Assembly (NCBI RefSeq): GCF_055900595.2
Contig: NZ_CM148325.1
Strand: one strand, 5' to 3'
DNA length: 64,000 bases
The notes beneath the pieces are model-generated. The model searched no databases. It was given only the letters and a program-made list of their open reading frames with translations, and was not told where the DNA came from. The translations under genes were made by a program, and so were the position numbers. Below are positions 27,117 through 55,934 of the stretch, piece after piece (the first letter of the stretch is position 1; every line of letters starts with the position of its first letter).

Positions 27117-27218
27117 ATTGCCTGATGCGCTACGCTTATCAGGCCTACATAATCTCTGCAATCTATTAAATTTGCATGTTTTTGTAGGCTGGATAAGGCG
27201 TTCACGCCGCATCCGGCA
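27117..27218. repeat. BIME: two inverted REP elements
   Basis: attgcctgatgcgctacgcttatcaggcctac and gtaggctggataaggcgttcacgccgcatccggca; closely resembles the REP region at 15621-15713. Confidence 0.55.
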
Positions 27219-46186: not shown

Positions 46187-46774
46187 TCAGTTAACTGAAT
46201 CGATCCATTGCACACTGTCGGCGGTGAGCGTAAAGGGAGTAGGGGTGCAGATCGCCAGACTTAAATTTTCAAGCTGACAATGGCTGACTGACAGCGAGGA
46301 CTGATAGGTGCTGTCTACGCTGACGATTTGCCAGGCGCTGCCGCCACGTTGTTTAACGATAGCTTCTTTGCGTGTCCAGATGCGCCAGAACATTTCCAGT
46401 TGCTGATCTGGATGCACGGCGTCCATCTCGGCATGTTCTCCGAGGCTGAACACCGCGTTCGCCAGCCAGCGCCAGTTGGCACGCGGGCGAATCACTTCGA
46501 TATCGCAGCCGACTTCGCCCTCATCGCTCAACAGTAGGGCAATATCGTCACCGCTATGGCTTAAGTTGAACCATAGCGGCGTTTCCGGCGCGAATGCAGG
46601 TTTGCCTTGTTCGCCATAGATGATCTCAGGTAGCGGGGAAAGCGTGTGTGAAAGCAATGCACGCCCCGCCAGCCAGCGTTCGCGCCGTGGACCTTGCGGT
46701 GCTTTATCGCGTAAAGCCGGTGGCAGTGGAGCTGCGCTTAAGGTCGAAACTTTCCCCAGAACTATCCGATACAT
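46187..46774 (-). CDS. acpT: 4'-phosphopantetheinyl transferase AcpT
   Basis: 195 aa Sfp-type ORF; start lies 1 bp downstream of the apeR stop, so probably co-transcribed with the PKS-like cluster. Confidence 0.88.
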   Translation of the reverse strand: MYRIVLGKVSTLSAAPLPPALRDKAPQGPRRERWLAGRALLSHTLSPLPEIIYGEQGKPAFAPETPLWFNLSHSGDDIALLLSDEGEVGCDIEVIRPRANWRWLANAVFSLGEHAEMDAVHPDQQLEMFWRIWTRKEAIVKQRGGSAWQIVSVDSTYQSSLSVSHCQLENLSLAICTPTPFTLTADSVQWIDSVN

Positions 46775-46775
46775 A

Positions 46776-48005
46776 TCAGGGCCAACGTTTTATGATGATG
46801 GATGTATTAATGCCGCCAAAGGCAAAGTTGTTACTCTGCAAAAACTCACAATCAATCTTGCGCGCTTCATGCATGATGTAATCCAGCTCGCCACAGTTAG
46901 GGTCTGGTTTATTCAGGTTTAGCGTAGGCGCAAACCAGCCTTCTCGCATCATTTGCAGACTCATCCAGGCTTCGAGCGCGCCACAGGCACCAAGCGTATG
47001 ACCAAAATAGCTTTTCAGCGAGGAGAGCGGCACATTATCACCGTAAATGGCTGCTGTCGCCAGACTTTCTGCCATATCACCACGATCGGTCGCCGTGCCA
47101 TGCGCTGAAATATAGCCAATATCTTGTGCGCTTAACCCGGCGATTTTCAGCGATTGCTCCATACAATACTGCATGGTTTCTCGCTGTGGTTGGGTGATAT
47201 GCGCGGCGTCGCAGTTAGTGGCAAAGCCGACGATTTCTCCATAAATGGTCGCACCGCGCGCTTTGGCGTGCTCCAGTTCTTCGAGAATCAGCGTGCCTGC
47301 GCCTTCGCCAATCACCAGCCCGTCGCGGTTTTCATCGAACGGTGAAGGGGTGGTTTTCGGCGCGTCATTATGCTGGCTGGTGGCGAAAAGCGTATCAAAT
47401 ACCGCCGCTTCTGAAGGGCATAACTCTTCGGCGCCACCAGCAACCATCACCGTTTGATAACCGTGACGAATGGCTTCCCACGCGTAGCCGATCGCCTGGC
47501 TGCCGGAGGTACAGGCGCTGGAGGTTGGGATCACCCGCCCGCGCAGGCCAAAAAATAGCCCGGTATTAACGGCGGTGGTGTGCGGCATCATCTGCACATA
47601 GGTGGTGCCAGTGATGTTATTGGTGTGCTTTTCAGTCAGCATGGTGGCGAACTCGCTCACCGGACCGGTACTGCCGGTCGATGAACCGTACGCAATGCCC
47701 GTTTCGCCGCTGGTTAATATCGGATCGCCAATCAACCCTGCCTGCTCTAACGCCAGCTCGCTGGCTCGGGTCGACATTTGCGACACGCGGCCCATCGCAC
47801 GGATACGCTTACGGGTGTAGTGCTCCGGTAGCGTAAAATCATCAATCGGCGCGCCAAGCAGGGTATGCAGGCCATCGTAAACCTGCCACTCCGGCATTTT
47901 GCGCACTGCGTTCTCATACGCCAGCAAACGCGCGGAAACGTCCTGCCAGTTTTCACCAAAGGCAGTCACGCCGCCCATTCCTGTAATCACTACGCGACGT
48001 GTCAT
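46776..48005 (-). CDS. apeR: Beta-ketoacyl-ACP synthase (KAS I/II-like), APE cluster
   Basis: 409 aa; active-site Cys in SSACTSGS, C-terminal HGTAT and GHTLGA motifs; symbol assigned by order/content match to the APE family. Confidence 0.75.
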   Translation of the reverse strand: MTRRVVITGMGGVTAFGENWQDVSARLLAYENAVRKMPEWQVYDGLHTLLGAPIDDFTLPEHYTRKRIRAMGRVSQMSTRASELALEQAGLIGDPILTSGETGIAYGSSTGSTGPVSEFATMLTEKHTNNITGTTYVQMMPHTTAVNTGLFFGLRGRVIPTSSACTSGSQAIGYAWEAIRHGYQTVMVAGGAEELCPSEAAVFDTLFATSQHNDAPKTTPSPFDENRDGLVIGEGAGTLILEELEHAKARGATIYGEIVGFATNCDAAHITQPQRETMQYCMEQSLKIAGLSAQDIGYISAHGTATDRGDMAESLATAAIYGDNVPLSSLKSYFGHTLGACGALEAWMSLQMMREGWFAPTLNLNKPDPNCGELDYIMHEARKIDCEFLQSNNFAFGGINTSIIIKRWP

Positions 48006-48733
48006 AACATCCCTCCGTTGATGGAAATAACCTGGCGGGTGACGTAACCCGCAATATCAGACATTAAATAACTGGCAAGCCCGGCAACTTCTTCCGCCTG
48101 GCCCATGCGTTTCATGGGGATCATCGACATTGCCTCTTTCAGAGCGCTCTCTTCCATTTCGATCATCCCGGTATCAATAAGCCCCGGCGCGATGCAATTG
48201 ACGGTGATTTTGCGCTTCGCGAGTTCGATAGCCAGTGCTTTTGTTGCGCCGATAATTCCGGCTTTGGCAGCACTGTAGTTCACCTGGCCGCGATTGCCCA
48301 TTACGCCGGAAACCGAGGACAGCGTGATGATGCGTCCGCCCTGGCGTGCGCCGATCATCGGCATAATGCACGGCTGAATGACGTTGTAGAAACTGTCGAG
48401 GTTGGTGTGGATCACCGCATCCCAGTCGTCATCGCTTAAAGCCGGAAAAGCGGCATCGCGGGCGATCCCGGCGTTACTAACCACGCCGTACCAGGCACCG
48501 TGTTGCGCGATCTCGTGCTCCAGCACTTCCCGACACTGTTCGCGGTTTGCGACGTCGAAACTGAGCAAACGCCCGTTACCACCGTTGGCGACAATGGCAT
48601 TCAGCGTTTCCTGAGCGCCTGCGGCGTCACGGTGATAGTGAACGCCAATGTTAAAGCCGTCTGCCGCCAGTTGGCAGGCGATGGCGCGACCAATGCCTTT
48701 GCTGGCACCAGTAACCAGAACTGAACGACTCAT
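48002..48733 (-). CDS. apeQ: 3-oxoacyl-ACP reductase (SDR, FabG-like), APE cluster
   Basis: 243 aa; Rossmann motif TGASKGIGRA, catalytic YSAAK; 4-bp overlap with apeR. Confidence 0.78.
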   Translation of the reverse strand: MSRSVLVTGASKGIGRAIACQLAADGFNIGVHYHRDAAGAQETLNAIVANGGNGRLLSFDVANREQCREVLEHEIAQHGAWYGVVSNAGIARDAAFPALSDDDWDAVIHTNLDSFYNVIQPCIMPMIGARQGGRIITLSSVSGVMGNRGQVNYSAAKAGIIGATKALAIELAKRKITVNCIAPGLIDTGMIEMEESALKEAMSMIPMKRMGQAEEVAGLASYLMSDIAGYVTRQVISINGGML

Positions 48734-49197
48734 CAGGACGCTCCTTGTTGAAACAGGGTGGTAAGTTCTTCCGCAGTCGGCTGGAAGGTGTTAATGCGGC
48801 CCGTTGCCTCGCCGTCGTTGATGCTGCACTCAAAACTGCCGAAGCGTTCATCTTGCATCAGCAGTTTGACGGTAATGGTCAGCGTCTGGCCTGCGGGCAG
48901 AATGCCAGCGGCGCAAAGCAATTCACGCGCGCCCAGTACCATCCCTAACTCAATACTGTTTTTGCCCTGCTGGTGGCGATGCCAGCCAGACCAGACGCCG
49001 ACGGTTTGCGCCATCAGTTCAAGGGCAAACCAGCCAGGGAGATTGCCGTCCGGGTCGAGAAACGGTGCCAGTACACCACTGGGCGAAACCGTCACGCGGC
49101 ACACGGCGCTGTCATCGCTGACGCTCACCACTTCTTCCAGCAGCAACATGGGCGCATCGTGGGGCAGATAAGCGCCGGGTGATAAATAGTGGCTCAC
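48733..49197 (-). CDS. apeP: Hotdog-fold dehydratase subunit (FabA/FabZ-like), APE cluster
   Basis: 154 aa hotdog-type ORF between KS and KR genes; 1-bp overlap with apeQ. Confidence 0.65.
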   Translation of the reverse strand: MSHYLSPGAYLPHDAPMLLLEEVVSVSDDSAVCRVTVSPSGVLAPFLDPDGNLPGWFALELMAQTVGVWSGWHRHQQGKNSIELGMVLGARELLCAAGILPAGQTLTITVKLLMQDERFGSFECSINDGEATGRINTFQPTAEELTTLFQQGAS

Positions 49198-50372
49198 GAA
49201 ACCCTCCCGAGCAGAATGCTGGCGTTATTGCCGCCAAAGGCGAAAGAATTGGACAGGATCACCGGACGTGCCAGCGGCTGTGGTTTTTCGATAATGCCGC
49301 ACGGTGGCAGCGTGGGATCGCGTGGCGACAGGCTGAAGTCCTGAGCGGGCAGCGGTAAATCACGCTCTAAGATCAACGTGCTAATTGCCGCCTCGGTAAT
49401 GCCCGCCGCGCCCAGCGTGTGTCCGGTCAAATGTTTGGTGGAGCTGCACGGTACGCGTTCGCCAAACAGGGCGTTAACCACCATTGATTCAATCTGGTCG
49501 TTGAGTTGTGTGGCGGTGCCGTGCAGGTTGATATAGCCCACCTCATCCGGCGTAAGCTGCGCATCGTTCAGCGCCTGGTTAATAGCGCGGATCGCCCCTT
49601 CGCCCTGCGGATGCGGGGCCGAAATATGATAAGCGTCGCTTGATTCACCAACGCCCAGTAACGCGATGGGCTGCGGTTCACGGGTCAGCAGCATTAGCCC
49701 CGCGCCTTCGCCAATGGTGATGCCCGCACGGTCACGACCGAACGGCTGACATAAGGTGGGCGACAGCGATTCGAGGCTGTGAAAACCGTTAATCGGCATC
49801 CGGCTCAGAGTGTCTGCGCCACCCACAATGGCGGCATCGACCAGCCCCGCTTCGATAAGCCTGCGCCCGCTGATCATCGCTCTGGCGCTGGAAGAGCAGG
49901 CGGTTGAAAGAGTATATGCCGGGCCGTCGAGCGCCAGCCAGTGGCTGAGAAAACGCGACGGATCGCCGAGTTCTTGTTGTGCATAGTGCCATGTGGTGCT
50001 TGGCTGCCCGTGGGTGCGCAGGTTAACGTGCGTGTCGCCTTCATGCAGGCCGGAGGTGCTGGTGCCAAGCACAATCGCGATGCGCTCGCGGCCATATTTT
50101 GCGATGGCGTCATCAACCTGCAGCTGGATCTGCGCCAGCGCCGCCAGCAGGATCTGATTGTTGCGCGAGCGGTGCGCAGCGAATTTTTCCGGGATAAGCG
50201 GAAGCTCGCCATCCACGCCAGCCAGGACCGCCTGCGGATGCCCCTGCAACCAGCCTGCGCGTGGGCGCATTCCGGGAGCAACACCGCGAGTCAGGTTGGC
50301 TGCGATCTCATCAAGATTATTTCCCAGGGCGTTGATCATGCCAACGGCGGAAATATAAATCATATTAGTCAC
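49194..50372 (-). CDS. apeO: Beta-ketoacyl-ACP synthase (KS), APE cluster
   Basis: 392 aa; active-site Cys in STACSSSARA, HGTAT and GHTLGAAG motifs. Confidence 0.78.
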   Translation of the reverse strand: MTNMIYISAVGMINALGNNLDEIAANLTRGVAPGMRPRAGWLQGHPQAVLAGVDGELPLIPEKFAAHRSRNNQILLAALAQIQLQVDDAIAKYGRERIAIVLGTSTSGLHEGDTHVNLRTHGQPSTTWHYAQQELGDPSRFLSHWLALDGPAYTLSTACSSSARAMISGRRLIEAGLVDAAIVGGADTLSRMPINGFHSLESLSPTLCQPFGRDRAGITIGEGAGLMLLTREPQPIALLGVGESSDAYHISAPHPQGEGAIRAINQALNDAQLTPDEVGYINLHGTATQLNDQIESMVVNALFGERVPCSSTKHLTGHTLGAAGITEAAISTLILERDLPLPAQDFSLSPRDPTLPPCGIIEKPQPLARPVILSNSFAFGGNNASILLGRVS

Positions 50373-50949
50373 CTAAGTATTGAATGGTGATGTGGTATTT
50401 AAAGACATGCTGCTCAATGCTGATTGGCACGCGTTTTCCTTTGCGATTCAAATAGGTGATTTCCGTGACCAGTTTGCCGCTGGCGTTACGCAGTTCGCGT
50501 TTGTCACCGTTGTCACGAAGTGTCCATCCTGCGGGAAGTTGCGGTTGCCAGGCGCTAATCGGCCAGTGGCTGAGCATTACGTCAGCCAGCACCTGACTTG
50601 CTGGCGGCAACTGTGGGACGACGATGGATTGCTCGGCGCGTAGCCCTTGCGCATCGTAGGTCACCAGAAACAGACGAATGCCGACTGATGACAGTCCGGC
50701 AAGGGTGATTTTCTGGTCGTCGGCATTAAGCATCACCAACAGCGACTGGGTTTTGCCGTTGAAGCTGCCAGTCAACAGTTGTTGGGAATTGACGGCGGGT
50801 GAAATCCCCGGCGCAGGCAGCGTGATGCGTGTGCCAGGTTGCAGCCACGCCTGCGGGCGGCCTTCCTGTTCCGGTTGCGAGTGGCTACAGCCGGTGAGGA
50901 TAAGCGTAGCGGTCAGGGCGAGCGCCCGCCAGAAGGTGGGTTTGATCAT
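50365..50949 (-). CDS. apeN: DUF3261-type lipoprotein, APE cluster
   Basis: 194 aa; signal peptide with lipobox LTGC; 8-bp overlap with apeO. Confidence 0.6.
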   Translation of the reverse strand: MIKPTFWRALALTATLILTGCSHSQPEQEGRPQAWLQPGTRITLPAPGISPAVNSQQLLTGSFNGKTQSLLVMLNADDQKITLAGLSSVGIRLFLVTYDAQGLRAEQSIVVPQLPPASQVLADVMLSHWPISAWQPQLPAGWTLRDNGDKRELRNASGKLVTEITYLNRKGKRVPISIEQHVFKYHITIQYLGD

Positions 50950-53261
50950 TTTTTTGTTCTCTTTTTATCGGGCATAGCCAGCGGCGAAAGCAGGAAGGCG
51001 GTGAAAATACCGCTCACCAGCACAATGCCAAAACTGCTGATGGCCTGAGTGGCGCTGAATACCAGCATTCCCAGCGTCAGCAAGGTGGTGAGCATTGCCA
51101 GCGTGATCGCCAGTAGGGAAGTTAACGGTGTACCGCGCGGATTACTGAAAAACAGCGTGTAGTTGATGCCGATGCCAAGCACCAGCACCAGCGCCAGCAG
51201 CGAAAAGAGATTCACCGCCTGCCCGCTCATCGCCAGCACTGCCAGACCGCAGCCCAGCGAAAGCACCGAAGGCACCAGGCTGATAAGCCCTTTGCGCCAG
51301 CCAAGGCGGGCCACTGCGCCGCAGGCAATCACTGCCAGCGCCACCAGCAACAAACCGGTTAAGACGTGGCGGTAAAGTGCGAACAATTCATCAAAAGTGT
51401 TTTTGCGATCAACCCAGGCAATGCCCTGGTAATAGCTGGCTGTTTCCTGCAACAACGCGCTACTTTTAACCCCTTCAACCGGCACCAGTACGCCGCTTGC
51501 GCCGTTTTCCAGCGTCAGCCACAGCAGACGCCAGCCTTCACTGGCGGGGCTTGCCAGCCATTCATCGACCTTCACTGGCATGGCGTTGAGATCTGGTTTC
51601 ACCGCCGTCAGCCCGGCATTTTGCAGCGCTTTTGTTACCGTCGGGGCAGACGTTTTCAGCAGATGTAAATCTTCCTCCTGCCGCACCAGGGAGTTCAGCG
51701 GAATAGTGCGGTAGTTGCTGATAAGACCGTCTTTTTTCGCTTTCTCCAGCGAGGCGGTAAATGTCTCCAGCCGCCGCAATGTTTGCTGTGGCGAATCGCC
51801 GTAAACCACAAACCATTTTTGATCGACGCTTTGTCCGGTCAGGGCGGTAATGGCTTTTTCCTGCGCCAGAATATGCTGCGGCAGCGCCTGTAACTGCGAG
51901 ATATCGTCATCGACGCGCAGCATTGACATCCCCGCCAGCGAAAACAGCGCCAGCGCGACGGGCAGACCCCGCGACAGTTTTTTATTGCGCCGCCACGCCG
52001 CCAGCCAGCGCAGCATCAGCGCCATCGCCGGAACCGGACGCACCGGCAGGCCACGGCACAGCCACGGATGCCAGAACAGAACGGTCAGACAGGAGGCGCT
52101 CAACCCGACGGCGGCAAAAATCGCCATCTGGCGAATGCCGGGGAAGGGGGCGAGCATCATAATCAGATACGCCGCCACGGTGGTGAGCAGCGCCAGTAGC
52201 AAGGCATTGCGCACTTTCGCCAGGCTTTGCCACGGCGAAACGTCATTGCCGTGCACCATCCGTTCAGTGAGGTAATAGAGCGTGTAGTCAGCGGAAATGC
52301 CGATAACGCTCATGCTCATCACCAGCGTCATCAGGTGTAATTCACCGAAAATCAACAAGGTGGCGACCGTTCCCGCCAGCGCGCCAATGCCGATGGAAAT
52401 CACGCAAAGCAGCAACGGGCGTAAAGAGCGGAACACCGCCACAATCAGTAATATCACCCCCAGCAGCGTTGCCACGCCCAGGGTTGAGATATCCTGCTTC
52501 GCCTGTTGACTGGCGTAATCGCTGTAAAATACCGTGCCGCGCGAGAGCAACTGCGCCTGCGGGTAACGCGTTTTCAGATCCTTTTCCAGCGTATTCAGGG
52601 TGGTGATGAGCTGGTGGGTTTGCTGCATATCAAACGACGATCCCGCCAGTTCTCCGTGTAGCAGATACCAGTAGTTGCCCTGGGGATCCTGCGTCACCAG
52701 CCAGCCGTCCATCAGTCGTAAACGCTGACCGTTTTTCGCCATCGCCAGCTGCGAGCCGCGCATTAACATCAGCGGATCGTTTTGCAGCTCCTTGCCGCTT
52801 ACCCCGGAGAACGCAGAATAAAGCTGGGAGAGGATCCACTGCGCCTGCGCTTCACCGCCGTTTTGTAGTCGGGCGCGAGTGTCGGGGTCAATCAGGCCGT
52901 TGCGATGCTGCCAGAAAAACGCTCCCCACGCCTGCTGGCTGGCGGCATCCATTGGCCCTTTAACATCGCCGAGCGCAGCGGATTTTTGCAGCAGCGTCAG
53001 CCATTCCTGAGCGACCAGGGGATTAGCCTCTTTACCGGGGCTGACCAGCCACACCAGTTGGCGGTCCAGACGCTGCATAAAGCCGTCATTCAGCGCCGGG
53101 GGAATATCGCCCATCGCCTGTTTGGGTAACATAGCCAGCACGCTACTGTTCAGTCGTGATTGCGGCAGCAGGATCAGCAACGCCGCTGCCATGACCAGGC
53201 AGATGATCCCCCATAACAGCGCCGGGCGTTTACTGGGCGGCAAAACGTTGGCGTTCGTCAT
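50946..53261 (-). CDS. apeM: MMPL/RND-superfamily membrane exporter, APE cluster
   Basis: 771 aa with two multi-TM bundles separated by large soluble domains. Confidence 0.7.
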   Translation of the reverse strand: MTNANVLPPSKRPALLWGIICLVMAAALLILLPQSRLNSSVLAMLPKQAMGDIPPALNDGFMQRLDRQLVWLVSPGKEANPLVAQEWLTLLQKSAALGDVKGPMDAASQQAWGAFFWQHRNGLIDPDTRARLQNGGEAQAQWILSQLYSAFSGVSGKELQNDPLMLMRGSQLAMAKNGQRLRLMDGWLVTQDPQGNYWYLLHGELAGSSFDMQQTHQLITTLNTLEKDLKTRYPQAQLLSRGTVFYSDYASQQAKQDISTLGVATLLGVILLIVAVFRSLRPLLLCVISIGIGALAGTVATLLIFGELHLMTLVMSMSVIGISADYTLYYLTERMVHGNDVSPWQSLAKVRNALLLALLTTVAAYLIMMLAPFPGIRQMAIFAAVGLSASCLTVLFWHPWLCRGLPVRPVPAMALMLRWLAAWRRNKKLSRGLPVALALFSLAGMSMLRVDDDISQLQALPQHILAQEKAITALTGQSVDQKWFVVYGDSPQQTLRRLETFTASLEKAKKDGLISNYRTIPLNSLVRQEEDLHLLKTSAPTVTKALQNAGLTAVKPDLNAMPVKVDEWLASPASEGWRLLWLTLENGASGVLVPVEGVKSSALLQETASYYQGIAWVDRKNTFDELFALYRHVLTGLLLVALAVIACGAVARLGWRKGLISLVPSVLSLGCGLAVLAMSGQAVNLFSLLALVLVLGIGINYTLFFSNPRGTPLTSLLAITLAMLTTLLTLGMLVFSATQAISSFGIVLVSGIFTAFLLSPLAMPDKKRTKK

Positions 53262-53835
53262 CGGTCAGTTGCGCTGGCGTCAGTTGATGTTGGGTAAGAG
53301 CGATATCGGTGCGATCGCCCTGTTTATCATTAAGCTGAATGCTCTCCAGATAGGTTTGCCCGGCGAGATCGATGGTATTGAAAATTTTATCCAGCGGCGT
53401 GGTGGTCGGCGTCAGGCGCAGCGTCCAGCGGCCTTCGCCTTTGTCAGCAAATTCGACGCGGAAGTTTTGTTCCAGCACTTTGCGATCGGCCTGGAACAGC
53501 GCGCGCAGCAGGTGGTTAAACTGGAACATCTGCGGGTTATTTTCTGCCGTGATGATTTGTGGCGGCTGACCGTTGATCACCTGCACCATGCGTTTATCGT
53601 CCAGTAATAGCTGCATGGGGAACGGTGAGGTTTGATCCCACAACAGCCCCTGGTCGCGGGCGATCAACATCTGCCCCTGCGATCGCAGCGGTTGCGGCAG
53701 ATCTTTAATCGTCCGGGTTTGATCGAAATGGGCGCGGATCACCGGCTGTTCGGTAAAGCGTTGCTGAAGATCGTCCAGGGTCAGGGCGCTCACAAACGGG
53801 CTAATCAGCAGCGCCAGCAGCGGTAAAAATTTCAT
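53230..53835 (-). CDS. apeL: LolA-like periplasmic lipoprotein carrier, APE cluster
   Basis: 201 aa, signal peptide MKFLPLLALLISPFVSA, LolA-like size; overlaps apeM by 32 bp. Confidence 0.6.
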   Translation of the reverse strand: MKFLPLLALLISPFVSALTLDDLQQRFTEQPVIRAHFDQTRTIKDLPQPLRSQGQMLIARDQGLLWDQTSPFPMQLLLDDKRMVQVINGQPPQIITAENNPQMFQFNHLLRALFQADRKVLEQNFRVEFADKGEGRWTLRLTPTTTPLDKIFNTIDLAGQTYLESIQLNDKQGDRTDIALTQHQLTPAQLTDDERQRFAAQ

Positions 53836-54254
53836 GGTTTGACTCCCATGCGTTCAAACAGAATATCGGGGCTGACAAAGCACAGTTCGCGGCTTTGCTC
53901 GTCGACCGCGACCTGAATGGTGTATCCGGTGGTGGCGCGTTTGCCCGTTTCGGCATCGAAAATCTGATAGCCAATTCGCAGGCGGTTTTCGAACTCTTCG
54001 ATATGCGCACGCACGCGGATGCGTTGCTCAAAGGTGAGGGCGTGGCGATATTTCACCCGCGCATCGACCACTGGCCACAAATAACCCGACTCTTTCATCT
54101 GCCGATAGCCGTAATTGAACTGGTTGAGCAGCGCCTCGCGGGCCACTTCAAAGTAGCGAAAATAGTTACCGTGCCAGGCCACGCCCATCATATCGACGTC
54201 GTGAAATGGAATGATCAGCTCGACTTCAGCGGTAAATCGGGGATCGTTAAGCAC
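53832..54254 (-). CDS. apeK: 4HBT/YbgC-type acyl thioesterase, APE cluster
   Basis: 140 aa hotdog thioesterase (HDVDMMGVAWHGNYFRYFE). Confidence 0.7.
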   Translation of the reverse strand: MLNDPRFTAEVELIIPFHDVDMMGVAWHGNYFRYFEVAREALLNQFNYGYRQMKESGYLWPVVDARVKYRHALTFEQRIRVRAHIEEFENRLRIGYQIFDAETGKRATTGYTIQVAVDEQSRELCFVSPDILFERMGVKP

Positions 54255-54257
54255 CCT

Positions 54258-55934
54258 TTACTCCTTGTCCTGGACTTCCGGCAGTTGCCAGAAATCGAAA
54301 AAATTAAACCAGTCGAGGGGCGACTGGAGCGCGTGATGTTCCAGACGCGCGGCGTAATGATCGATAGCGTTTTGCAGCGCCTGCTGGCGTTCGCCACGCG
54401 GCAACAGCAGCGGGTCGGCAAAGGTTTCGCAGTTAATATGCAGCTTGCCGTGCTGGCGCAGGGCGAAAATCAGATTCACCGGGCAGCGCAAAATAGACGC
54501 GAGAATAAACGGCCCCTGTGGGAAGGGCGCAGGCTGGCCCATAAACGAACTCCAGCAGACGCGCCAGTCGCCGCCGCGTTGCGGGTTGATGGCGATGCGG
54601 TCACCAACAATCGCCACCCATTCGCCGTTATCCAGCTTCTCTTTTAGCAGGATGGCGGTGTCCGGGCCGATATCCGTCACCGGCATCAGGTTAATGCCTG
54701 CCTGAGGAGCCATCTCCTGCATTATCTGTTTAAAGCGTTGGGCGTTTTCGCTAAACACCAGCGCGTTAATGGTTTTGTAGCCCTGAATTTTTGCCAGCGC
54801 CCGGCACACTTCCACATCGCCAAGATGCGAGGCCAGCAGCAATTTGCCGCGCGGATCGCTGACGTTAAGTGCCGCTTCTGCGCCTGGTGCAAACAGCACA
54901 TCACGCCCGAGTTGCAGCTCGCCGCGCCAACTGGCGATTTTGTCGAGCATGGCGTTGCCGAAACGTAGAAAGTGCTGATAGCTGTTGAGTTTTGCTGCCT
55001 GTGGTTGATGCTGGCGCACACGGGCGAGCCAGTCTTGCGACGCTTTGCGCGCCCGGCTGGCGGTGAGCCAGTAGACGCCCACCACCGGATAAAGCAGCGC
55101 GGTAAACGCCGTTCTTCCCAGCAGGCGCCAGACCAGCAGCATCAGGCGCATTCCCCATAATCCTTTCACTTCGCTCTGCCGCGCCCAGTGGCTGGAAGAG
55201 TGGCGCATCAGCAGCGAAGGAATACGCGGCAACATGCCGAAAAACAGGCGCGTGTGCATGAGCGAGATGCGGACGTTATCTTTCAGGGCATCAAAGTGCG
55301 AAAGCCCGTCCAGCGGATAGGTGACGCGGGTCGGCACGAAATAGCTGGTGTTTCCCTGCCAGTAGAGGCGCACCATCACTTCGGTGTCGAAATCCATCCG
55401 CTTGCCGATGGTGGCGTGTTTTGCCAGTTGCAGCGTTGGCGCAACCGGATAAACGCGAAAGCCGCACATGCTGTCTTTCAGTTGCAGGGAGAGCGTTTCG
55501 ACCCATACCCAGATGTGGGTGACCCAGCGCCCGTACAGCCGTGAGCGGGGGATGGAGTCATCGTAAATTGGCTGGCCGGAGATCAGTGCCGCAGGGTGTT
55601 GTTCAGCGAGTGCCAGCAGTTTGGGGATATCTTCAATCGCGTGCTGACCGTCGGCATCTACCTGTACCGCATGGCTGAACCCCGCGTCTGCCGCTGCCTG
55701 TAAGCCGCGCATTACCGCCGCGCCTTTGCCTGCGTTTTCTGCCAGGCGAATTAATGTCACGCCAGGCTGTTCGGCAACCAGATTATCCAGTTGCTGTTGC
55801 GTGGCGGCATCGCTGCCGTCATCCACCACAATACAGGGCAGATTAAATGGCTTAAGACGCGCCAGCACGCCCGGCATCATTGCGCCGTGGTTGTAGCAGG
55901 GGATCAACACGCAGGGAGAAAAGTTTACCGACAT
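54258..55934 (-). CDS. apeJ: Fusion protein: GT2-like glycosyltransferase plus lipid-A-type (LpxL/HtrB-like) acyltransferase, APE cluster
   Basis: 558 aa; N-terminal GT2 features (VLIPCYNHG..VVDDGSDAAT, DADGQH), C-terminal half acyltransferase-like. Confidence 0.6.
   Translation of the reverse strand: MSVNFSPCVLIPCYNHGAMMPGVLARLKPFNLPCIVVDDGSDAATQQQLDNLVAEQPGVTLIRLAENAGKGAAVMRGLQAAADAGFSHAVQVDADGQHAIEDIPKLLALAEQHPAALISGQPIYDDSIPRSRLYGRWVTHIWVWVETLSLQLKDSMCGFRVYPVAPTLQLAKHATIGKRMDFDTEVMVRLYWQGNTSYFVPTRVTYPLDGLSHFDALKDNVRISLMHTRLFFGMLPRIPSLLMRHSSSHWARQSEVKGLWGMRLMLLVWRLLGRTAFTALLYPVVGVYWLTASRARKASQDWLARVRQHQPQAAKLNSYQHFLRFGNAMLDKIASWRGELQLGRDVLFAPGAEAALNVSDPRGKLLLASHLGDVEVCRALAKIQGYKTINALVFSENAQRFKQIMQEMAPQAGINLMPVTDIGPDTAILLKEKLDNGEWVAIVGDRIAINPQRGGDWRVCWSSFMGQPAPFPQGPFILASILRCPVNLIFALRQHGKLHINCETFADPLLLPRGERQQALQNAIDHYAARLEHHALQSPLDWFNFFDFWQLPEVQDKE

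Follow-up and report, generated by a model that had tools for sequence, protein, structure and literature searches.

Analyzing a 64,000-nucleotide stretch of DNA (NCBI RefSeq assembly GCF_055900595.2, contig NZ_CM148325.1; hereafter the window), we found that acpT lies directly behind apeR, at the end of an aryl polyene (APE) gene cluster. The explanation that we consider highly probable is that acpT is the last gene of the native enterobacterial APE cluster, which lies here between yhhT and nikA, that it is made with the cluster and activates the carrier proteins ApeE and ApeF, and that it is orphaned by deletion. An earlier note had proposed, from the sequence, that acpT terminates the APE operon, and the parts of this proposal that can be tested in sequence hold, i.e. 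the 1-nt gap, the lack of promoter-like or terminator-like sites at the junction and the linkage across genera; apeR and acpT would be co-transcribed, and a requirement for AcpT over AcpS is inferred. The features of the region are listed below, with ape gene names assigned by order in Table 1 of PMC8253772.

46187..46774, minus strand, acpT, 195-aa Sfp-type (group II) 4'-phosphopantetheinyl transferase (PPTase; ORF, NF007676, PF01648, motifs)
46775..46778, minus strand, junction: apeR TGA and the single spacer nucleotide (sequence)
46776..48005, minus strand, apeR-type beta-ketoacyl-ACP synthase, 409 aa, last ketosynthase, C-terminus ...IIKRWP-stop (ORF, NF006587)
48002-48733, minus strand, apeQ, KR (PGAP, ORFs)
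48733-49197, minus strand, apeP, DH (PGAP, ORFs)
49194-50363, minus strand, apeO, KS (PGAP, ORFs)
50365-50949, minus strand, apeN, DUF3261 (PGAP, ORFs)
50946-53261, minus strand, apeM, MMPL (PGAP, ORFs)
53230-53835, minus strand, apeL, LolA-like (PGAP, ORFs)
53832-54254, minus strand, apeK, thioesterase (PGAP, ORFs)
54258-55934, minus strand, apeJ, GT2 (PGAP, ORFs)
55925-56278, minus strand, apeI, DH (PGAP, ORFs)
56265-57626, minus strand, apeH, AMP-binding (PGAP, ORFs)
57623-58204, minus strand, apeG (PGAP, ORFs)
58209..58460, minus strand, apeF, 83-aa acyl carrier protein, candidate AcpT substrate (NF003757, 146 bits)
58472..58729, minus strand, apeE, 85-aa phosphopantetheine-binding carrier protein, candidate AcpT substrate (NF006617, 90 bits)
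58704-59525, minus strand, apeD, LPLAT acyltransferase (PGAP)
59522-60244, minus strand, apeC, chain-length factor (PGAP)
60285-61343, minus strand, apeB, methyltransferase (PGAP)
61412-61789, minus strand, apeA, lipoprotein/hypothetical, 5' end of the cluster (PGAP)
61790..62180, minus strand, yhhT-apeA intergenic region, 391 bp, AT-rich (34% GC), presumed cluster promoter region (sequence)

The span 46187-46778 comprises acpT, a 1-nt spacer and the stop codon of the ketosynthase gene. As the earlier note had claimed, the ORFs place the start of acpT one base past the apeR stop on the same strand: position 46775 is the sole nucleotide between the apeR TGA (46778-46776) and the acpT ATG (46774-46772). 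The strand had been left unstated; all of the genes are on the minus strand. The same genes at the same coordinates are annotated by PGAP in an identical genome (window coordinate = locus coordinate + 27049), and positions 46050-48100 are 100% identical to E. coli strain Z0117EC0005. From apeC to acpT the gaps between genes range from -32 to +11 nt, the +1 nt between apeR and acpT being as tight as any within the cluster, while the 5' gaps are wider (apeA-apeB 68 nt, apeB-apeC 40 nt). On its other side acpT is separated from nikA by 110 nt containing a perfect NikR operator. The GC content of acpT (55.6%) compares with 55.3% for the cluster.

The identical junction is intact in 569 of the 5426 complete E. 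coli genomes, and a 1-3 nt apeR-acpT junction was found in all eight APE-linked places examined outside E. coli; given these two sets, the adjacency is not due to chance. The order MMPL-DUF3261-KS-DH-KR-KS-ACPS together with the 1-3 nt junction is present in Citrobacter (L005/6), Enterobacter hormaechei (L009/10) and K. aerogenes (L011), and also in the metagenome loci L013, L014 and L016, whose AcpT is 47%, 42% and 38% identical, respectively; the short metagenome contigs L012 and L015 start with the ApeR C-terminus, and over the five metagenome loci with the junction AcpT identity is 38-50%. Where the contigs reach, the neighbors downstream of acpT vary (nik, the arn operon, NlpC/P60, MS channel). 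In all genera compared the C-terminus of ApeR reads ...KRW-x-stop.

The cluster itself carries the E. coli-type APE gene set, defined as the adenylating enzyme ApeH, the ApeC/ApeO CLF-KS, the ApeR KS, the dehydratases ApeI/ApeP, the reductase ApeQ, the carrier proteins ApeE/ApeF and the LolA/MMPL/DUF3261 export and lipid-attachment genes, and it is colinear with the CFT073-type cluster, with which it was compared over 6.3 kb. PGAP labels include "ApeP family" and "ApeI family" dehydratases and a chain-length factor. The apeR product scored 780 bits against the equivalog NF006587 (beta-ketoacyl-ACP synthase; cutoff 470) and shares 81-93% identity with the ketosynthases that precede acpT in other genera. 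It is the orthologue of CFT073 c1186, named ApeR in the gene table of PMC8253772, as established via the CFT073-type copy in strain AST216: window positions 46776-53097, covering apeR up to part of apeM, are 95.65% identical in nucleotides to that copy, the junction of which is 99.3% identical in CFT073. The cluster is located between yhhT and acpT-nikA, a layout as in E. coli O157:H7. No tRNA gene, a frequent island integration site, was found in the whole window.

Sfp-type PPTases transfer the 4'-phosphopantetheine arm of CoA to a serine of a carrier protein. By family profile and motifs AcpT is a member of this (group II) superfamily. It scored 394.4 bits against the AcpT equivalog NCBIfam NF007676 (cutoff 174), residues 1-195 aligning with profile positions 1-195, and it matched Pfam ACPS PF01648 with E=4.5e-11. 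The Mg/CoA-binding motif G-x-D-x-E is present as GCDIE (residues 89-93, nt 46510-46496) and the W/F-x-x-K-E-A-x-x-K motif as WTRKEAIVK (residues 133-141, nt 46378-46352), both being invariant in 7 orthologues. Among solved structures, Sfp (1qr0) comes closest, with E=8e-9. Sfp of B. subtilis and EntD share the PF01648 superfamily with AcpT and are likewise dedicated PPTases encoded with the carrier proteins of their pathway, yet the relationship to Sfp is distant and AcpT is shorter (195 aa vs about 224-230); AcpT and EntD are 28% identical (PMC4103896). The AcpT family proper is small, with 31 clusters at E<=1e-30 among 1.84 billion representatives. The two carrier proteins that the earlier note had placed at 58209-58729 were recovered by the profiles NF003757 and NF006617, and each carries the serine of the LDSID attachment motif (ApeF Ser40, ELDSID; ApeE Ser41, GLDSID). 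Compared with their O157:H7 orthologues, ApeF is identical at 82/83 residues and ApeE at 83/85. The physical linkage of the enzyme and its candidate substrates proposed in the earlier note is thus present, in an arrangement that is already that of O157:H7. Here AcpT would transfer phosphopantetheine from CoA to the conserved serines Ser41 of ApeE and Ser40 of ApeF, and in their holo form the two proteins would bear the 4-hydroxybenzoyl starter as well as the polyene chain during its growth.

The earlier note had named an independent promoter and terminator separating apeR from acpT as the finding that would speak against a common operon. Consensus scans of the minus strand from 45800 to 48300 detected nothing resembling a sigma-70 promoter, and the apeR-acpT junction showed no terminator-like site; around the junction counts were at or below the shuffled expectation. 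Because counts are at chance level, the absence of a match is weak evidence, and promoters that are weak or not of the sigma-70 type could be missed. The sole terminator-like match on the minus strand (48052-48035) lies inside apeQ, upstream of the junction, and is within chance. Upstream of apeA there is one sigma-70-like match (9/12, 61995-61967), a count not above the shuffled expectation, and immediately behind yhhT a hairpin ending in a T-rich tail (62160-62124) has the appearance of this gene's terminator. The anti-SD duplex energy of acpT is -1.5 kcal/mol compared with -8.3 to -10.8 for apeP, apeQ and apeR. Essentially lacking a Shine-Dalgarno and starting 1 nt behind apeR, acpT appears from these features to be translationally coupled to apeR. 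Transcription would start in the AT-rich region upstream of apeA and yield one or a few polycistronic mRNAs extending through apeR into acpT; ribosomes terminating at apeR would most likely re-initiate at acpT, so that AcpT would be made when, and roughly in proportion as, the cluster is expressed.

K-12 carries an orphan acpT directly behind yhhT with nikA downstream. Its AcpT (yhhU/ORF195) is orthologous and differs from that of the window at 5/195 residues; the cluster is deleted and there are no carrier-protein substrates in cis. The K-12 genome and PMC8253772 agree with what the earlier note had stated, namely that AcpT is an orphan in K-12 and that its substrates are encoded in an island of other E. 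coli. Both K-12 and Salmonella retain the scar AACGTTGG(C/T)CCTGAT immediately followed by the ATG of acpT, corresponding to the ...RWP-stop of apeR; in K-12 it amounts to ~19 nt from the 3' end of apeR with its stop codon, 54 nt behind yhhT. The 569 apeR-acpT and 4856 yhhT-scar-acpT junctions add up to 5425, i.e. every E. coli genome with acpT. The apeR remnant, together with ...KRW-x-stop being intrinsic to ApeR in all genera, argues for deletion and not insertion, and as part of our preferred explanation we consider it very likely that apeA through most of apeR were deleted in 4856/5426 E. coli (K-12 included) and in Salmonella. Searching the window for the source of the ~35 nt that separate yhhT from the remainder of apeR in K-12 and Salmonella gave only chance-level short matches, hence there was no clean excision relative to the window allele. 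Where apeR is gone (K-12, Salmonella), acpT is intact and keeps its catalytic motifs, and its dN/dS is ~0.13.

The opposite history, in which acpT belongs to the core of the nik region and an APE island by coincidence integrated just upstream of it, draws on the presence of acpT-nikA in 5425/5426 complete E. coli genomes and of the island at this site in only 569. It is extremely improbable, since Enterobacter and Klebsiella have acpT behind apeR and nowhere near nik, and island-less genomes keep the last apeR codons and the stop; insertion of the island beside a resident acpT was therefore rejected, being effectively refuted by what is left of apeR and by the linkage seen in several genera. 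Unlikely, too, is that acpT merely adjoins the cluster and is expressed independently from a promoter in the 3' part of apeR or otherwise, the 1-nt spacing being a relic of packing. In favor of this, acpT is kept intact and under purifying selection where apeR is gone, so that it can presumably be expressed to some extent in the absence of apeR; in K-12, multicopy acpT produces phenotypes, and weak or non-sigma-70 promoters are beyond the reach of the scans. However, the scanned region lacks a sigma-70-like site and acpT a Shine-Dalgarno, the 1-3 nt junction was kept while AcpT diverged to 38% identity, and the hairpin found behind yhhT in island-bearing strains is absent from K-12, where acpT lies 54 nt behind yhhT, so that read-through from yhhT could explain expression of the orphan.

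The APE cluster of Acinetobacter baumannii has tandem ApeE/ApeF that share the attachment serine (Ser41 in ApeE); it lacks a PPTase and its carriers were activated with the housekeeping AcpS, while the enterobacterial type ends in a PPTase gene of its own. Because A. baumannii AcpS converts ApeE and ApeF of this species to the holo form in vitro, our explanation is tempered: AcpT may not be strictly required. A rival view holds AcpS to be the physiological activator of ApeE/ApeF, with AcpT redundant for APE and kept for another, possibly non-catalytic role. It gains from the A. baumannii result, from the CFT073-type cluster lacking a PPTase, from the suppression of yejM/lapC mutants by AcpT, for which enzymatic activity is reportedly not needed, and from the conservation of orphan acpT in 4856 E. 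coli genomes and Salmonella. Nevertheless, the ApeE/ApeF homologues of O157:H7 are reported to be activated by AcpT in vitro (De Lay & Cronan 2006, cited in PMC8253772), the catalytic motifs are preserved in every orthologue compared, and a redundant gene would hardly stay so tightly linked to the cluster in different genera; we regard this view as improbable.

Two further readings concern coupling and deletion, and we put them forward as tentative and rather doubtful: (a) acpT would be translated solely by termination-reinitiation from apeR, tying the PPTase supply to expression of the cluster and leaving the K-12 orphan nearly silent, and (b) the orphan would stem from one deletion, with a scar common to K-12-type E. 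coli and Salmonella; in (b), the upkeep of an intact orphan under purifying selection would imply a second AcpT substrate or function outside aryl polyene synthesis. Neither (a) nor (b) was found in the literature searched.

The closest known system is that of O157:H7, in which the locus is identical (yhhT, 18 ape genes, acpT, nikA) in gene order and 1-nt junction. AcpT differs there from that of the window at 4/195 residues, and nucleotide divergence is ~4-5% (95.7% identity over 46050-48100) with no functional difference apparent. De Lay and Cronan reportedly used the name O-island 138 for the region and gave Z4853/Z4854 as the AcpT substrates. The link between enzyme and substrates and the orphaning of AcpT in K-12 were already published in 2006, and the title of that paper states that AcpT is orphaned from its O157:H7 substrates (De Lay & Cronan, Mol Microbiol 61:232). 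There is hence nothing new in them: the arrangement holds up and is conserved, and the finding is correct but ordinary. The CFT073 APE_Ec BGC (c1186-c1204; Cimermancic 2014; Johnston 2021, PMC8253772) comprises the 18 genes apeA-apeR, ordered as in the window. It produced aryl polyene pigment on heterologous expression (PMC8253772), and pigment is predicted for the window cluster. The CFT073-type copy occupies another chromosomal site, beside cdiBA and decayed sugar genes, and its homology to the window ends exactly at the apeR stop codon. The absence of acpT in cis accounts for the statement in PMC8253772 that there is no dedicated PPTase; genomes with this copy keep an orphan acpT at yhhT-nikA. 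As a point against our explanation, the CFT073-type copy works in a K-12 host although no acpT is linked to it; since this host has chromosomal acpT and acpS, the experiment does not discriminate between AcpT and AcpS. For annotation it is useful that the window represents a native, cis-linked E. coli APE cluster with its own activating enzyme. BGC boundaries derived from the CFT073 copy end at apeR and leave out acpT, although this gene closes the cluster both in its native E. coli position and in all APE-linked loci that were examined from other Enterobacteriaceae.

In the window, acpT and the last ketosynthase gene of the aryl polyene (APE) cluster lie on the minus strand, as does every relevant gene, with a single nucleotide (46775) between the ketosynthase stop and the acpT start codon:

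46187-46774, minus: acpT, phosphopantetheinyl transferase (PPTase) gene, 195-aa ORF, ATG at 46774-46772
46776-48005, minus: apeR-type ketosynthase gene, 409-aa ORF, stop TGA at 46778-46776
58209-58460, minus: carrier protein ApeF, LDSID motif, Ser40
58472-58729, minus: carrier protein ApeE, LDSID motif, Ser41

The 195-aa ORF matched the NCBIfam AcpT equivalog NF007676 (394 bits; cutoff 174), carries the Pfam ACPS domain and has Sfp as its nearest solved structure, while the 409-aa ORF matched the beta-ketoacyl-ACP synthase equivalog NF006587 (780 bits). The ORF coordinates bear out the one-base, same-strand spacing claimed in an earlier note, which omitted only the strand, and the two carrier proteins it placed in the cluster both carry the LDSID motif. 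Its claim that enzyme and candidate substrates are physically linked also holds, and the O157:H7 locus is arranged alike.

PGAP annotation places yhhT, an 18-gene cluster, acpT and nikABCDE-nikR in this order on one strand, and the cluster is an APE cluster:

Genes 1-9: hypothetical/lipoprotein, methyltransferase, chain-length factor, LPLAT, two ACPs, hypothetical, AMP-binding enzyme, ApeI dehydratase
Genes 10-18: GT2, thioesterase, LolA-like, MMPL, DUF3261, KS, ApeP dehydratase, FabG2, KS

It is colinear with the CFT073-type cluster (95.65% identical over 6.3 kb), for which pigment production has been demonstrated (PMC8253772). Intergenic distances range from -32 to +11 nt between apeC and acpT, with 68 nt for apeA-apeB and 40 nt for apeB-apeC; the +1 gap of apeR-acpT is in keeping with the close spacing of the apeC-acpT stretch. 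acpT and the cluster agree in GC content (55.6% and 55.3%). Between acpT and nikA lie 110 nt that include a perfect NikR operator (GTATGA-N16-TCATAC at 46114-46141; 0 expected by chance). On minus-strand RNA this palindrome is the main hairpin, followed by TTATTT, and one might speculate that it doubles as a weak end of the ape-acpT transcript. The yhhT-apeA intergenic region is AT-rich (34% GC), and directly after yhhT both the window and O157:H7 carry a hairpin (62124-62160, minus; ATGGCCAC-N13-GTGGCCAT then TTTGATTTG) that looks like the yhhT terminator.

Several independent lines of evidence, namely linkage across genera, GC content, the missing Shine-Dalgarno sequence and, weakly, the junction scan, indicate that acpT belongs to the APE cluster. 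In Citrobacter (L005/L006), Enterobacter hormaechei (L009/L010) and Klebsiella aerogenes (L011), an ApeR-type ketosynthase gene ends 1-2 nt ahead of the AcpT orthologue and the upstream order MMPL-DUF3261-KS-DH-KR-KS is common to all three, while acpT is followed in Citrobacter by phenolic acid decarboxylase/LysR and then nik, and in Enterobacter and Klebsiella by a convergent arn operon. The distant family members P0141, P0143 and P0160 (47%, 42% and 38% identity; 50%-clustered library) are linked as the orthologues are, and two short metagenome contigs (L012, L015) start with the ApeR C-terminus, 2-3 nt ahead of the PPTase start. Across loci the ketosynthase remains 81-93% identical while AcpT identity drops to 38%; AcpT thus diverges much faster than the neighbouring ApeR (at least 81%).

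A second location of the cluster, found in E. coli AST216, adjoins cdiBA and decayed sugar genes and lacks acpT in cis. In L003, the AST216 locus (4700-5060), the sequence before the apeR stop codon is unrelated to the window and homology begins exactly at that codon, with the break precisely in the 1-nt spacer. The junction is shared by 162 genomes, CFT073, Nissle 1917, ABU 83972 and ATCC 25922 among them:

CFT073 NC_004431.1, 1143526-1143826: CFT073-type junction, translocated second APE copy

In K-12, yhhT is followed after 54 nt by acpT, in line with the earlier note's description of K-12 AcpT as an orphan, and Salmonella is arranged likewise. Both keep AACGTTGG(C/T)CCTGAT directly 5' of the acpT ATG, that is, the last apeR codons (…RWP), TGA and the 1-nt spacer:

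K-12 locus (L002), 4716-4799: scar
Salmonella locus (L007), 5930-6012: scar
Window, 46772-46794: matching stretch

Since ApeR ends in …KRW-x-stop in all genera examined, this remnant is a deletion scar and not an insertion site, and a coincidental insertion of the cluster beside a resident acpT is effectively refuted. On the left, the break is at the stop codon of yhhT (TGA in orphans, TAA in island-bearing strains). K-12 and Salmonella share homology at the left end of the ~35-nt orphan spacer, and a search of the island for the spacer's source found none. The shared scar points to a single ancient deletion or to exchange of the allele. Among 5426 complete E. coli genomes, 569 carry the apeR-acpT junction and 4856 the yhhT-scar-acpT junction (sum 5425). 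The yhhT hairpin is missing from the orphan spacer of K-12 and Salmonella, and therefore acpT may be read through from yhhT there. Comparison of window 46187-46774 with orthologues in L002, L004, L005, L007, L009 and L011 gave pairwise Nei-Gojobori dN/dS of 0.06-0.13 (K-12 versus Salmonella, 0.13 at dS 1.28), and catalytic motifs are intact even without APE substrates, indicating that orphan acpT is under purifying selection.

The likely explanation is that transcription passes through apeR into acpT, that translation is coupled and that AcpT activates ApeE and ApeF. The cluster would be transcribed from the AT-rich yhhT-apeA region, and the view of acpT as the terminal gene of the APE operon finds support in sequence and comparison. 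A Shine-Dalgarno sequence is all but missing from acpT (anti-SD duplex energy -1.5 kcal/mol versus -8.3 to -10.8 for apeP, apeQ and apeR), which together with the 1-nt spacing suggests termination-reinitiation from apeR. An independent internal promoter driving acpT is improbable; a minus-strand scan of the junction found no sigma-70-like site and no terminator-like site, with scan counts at chance level that make this weak evidence. AcpT would move 4'-phosphopantetheine from CoA onto ApeE Ser41 and ApeF Ser40, a transfer chemistry established for the family.

It is equally unlikely that AcpS, the housekeeping PPTase, is the true activator and AcpT redundant. In favour of that reading, AcpS acts on A. 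baumannii ApeE/ApeF, and the reported suppression of yejM/lapC by AcpT is non-catalytic. In vitro, AcpT activated the O157:H7 ApeE/ApeF homologues (De Lay & Cronan 2006, as cited in PMC8253772); O157:H7 and window differ at 4 of 195 AcpT residues and 1-2 carrier protein residues, and their apeR-acpT junctions are identical. PMC8253772 itself points to AcpT for APE carrier proteins. Its statement that the CFT073 BGC 'does not contain a dedicated PPTase' arises because the characterised cluster, APE_Ec, is the CFT073 copy (c1186-c1204), without acpT. The host used to express this BGC, Top10, derives from K-12 and presumably carries the same orphan acpT as MG1655, and our literature search found no in vivo experiment separating AcpT from AcpS.

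Both the pairing of AcpT with its substrates and the orphan status of K-12 AcpT with respect to the O157:H7 substrates are already known; to judge by its title and the citing papers PMC8253772 and PMC4103896, De Lay & Cronan 2006 deals with both. The linkage is ordinary and already explained. Our small, possibly new additions are the missing acpT Shine-Dalgarno, the junction kept down to 38% AcpT identity, the scar common to K-12 and Salmonella, the CFT073-type copy that breaks off precisely at the stop codon of apeR and purifying selection on orphan acpT.

The 2 kb at 46050-48100 are 100% identical to E. coli Z0117EC0005 (dog, Korea) and belong to a lineage that is uncommon at this locus: no more than 9 of 5426 genomes reach 99% identity or above. 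K-12 and O157:H7 each stand at just ~96% there, and acpT dS is 0.15-0.16 between the window and either, versus 0.037 between the two. Elsewhere, the gorA-arsR interval holds the dinQ type I toxin gene with two full-length AgrB antisense sRNA matches next to it (~90 bits each; 18045-18127 and 18278-18362, minus). The chu heme-uptake locus is whole, with a shuA/chuA 5' UTR RNA thermometer match upstream of chuA (7770-7801, plus; 60.1 bits, gathering score 58). An Rfam ES036 (CssrF) sRNA match (27141-27181, minus) is borderline, scoring 37.9 bits where the gathering score is 37.6. The DUF4049 gene at 31966-33573 (plus), next to its paralogue yhiJ, is a pseudogene interrupted by an internal stop according to the annotation of the identical genome.
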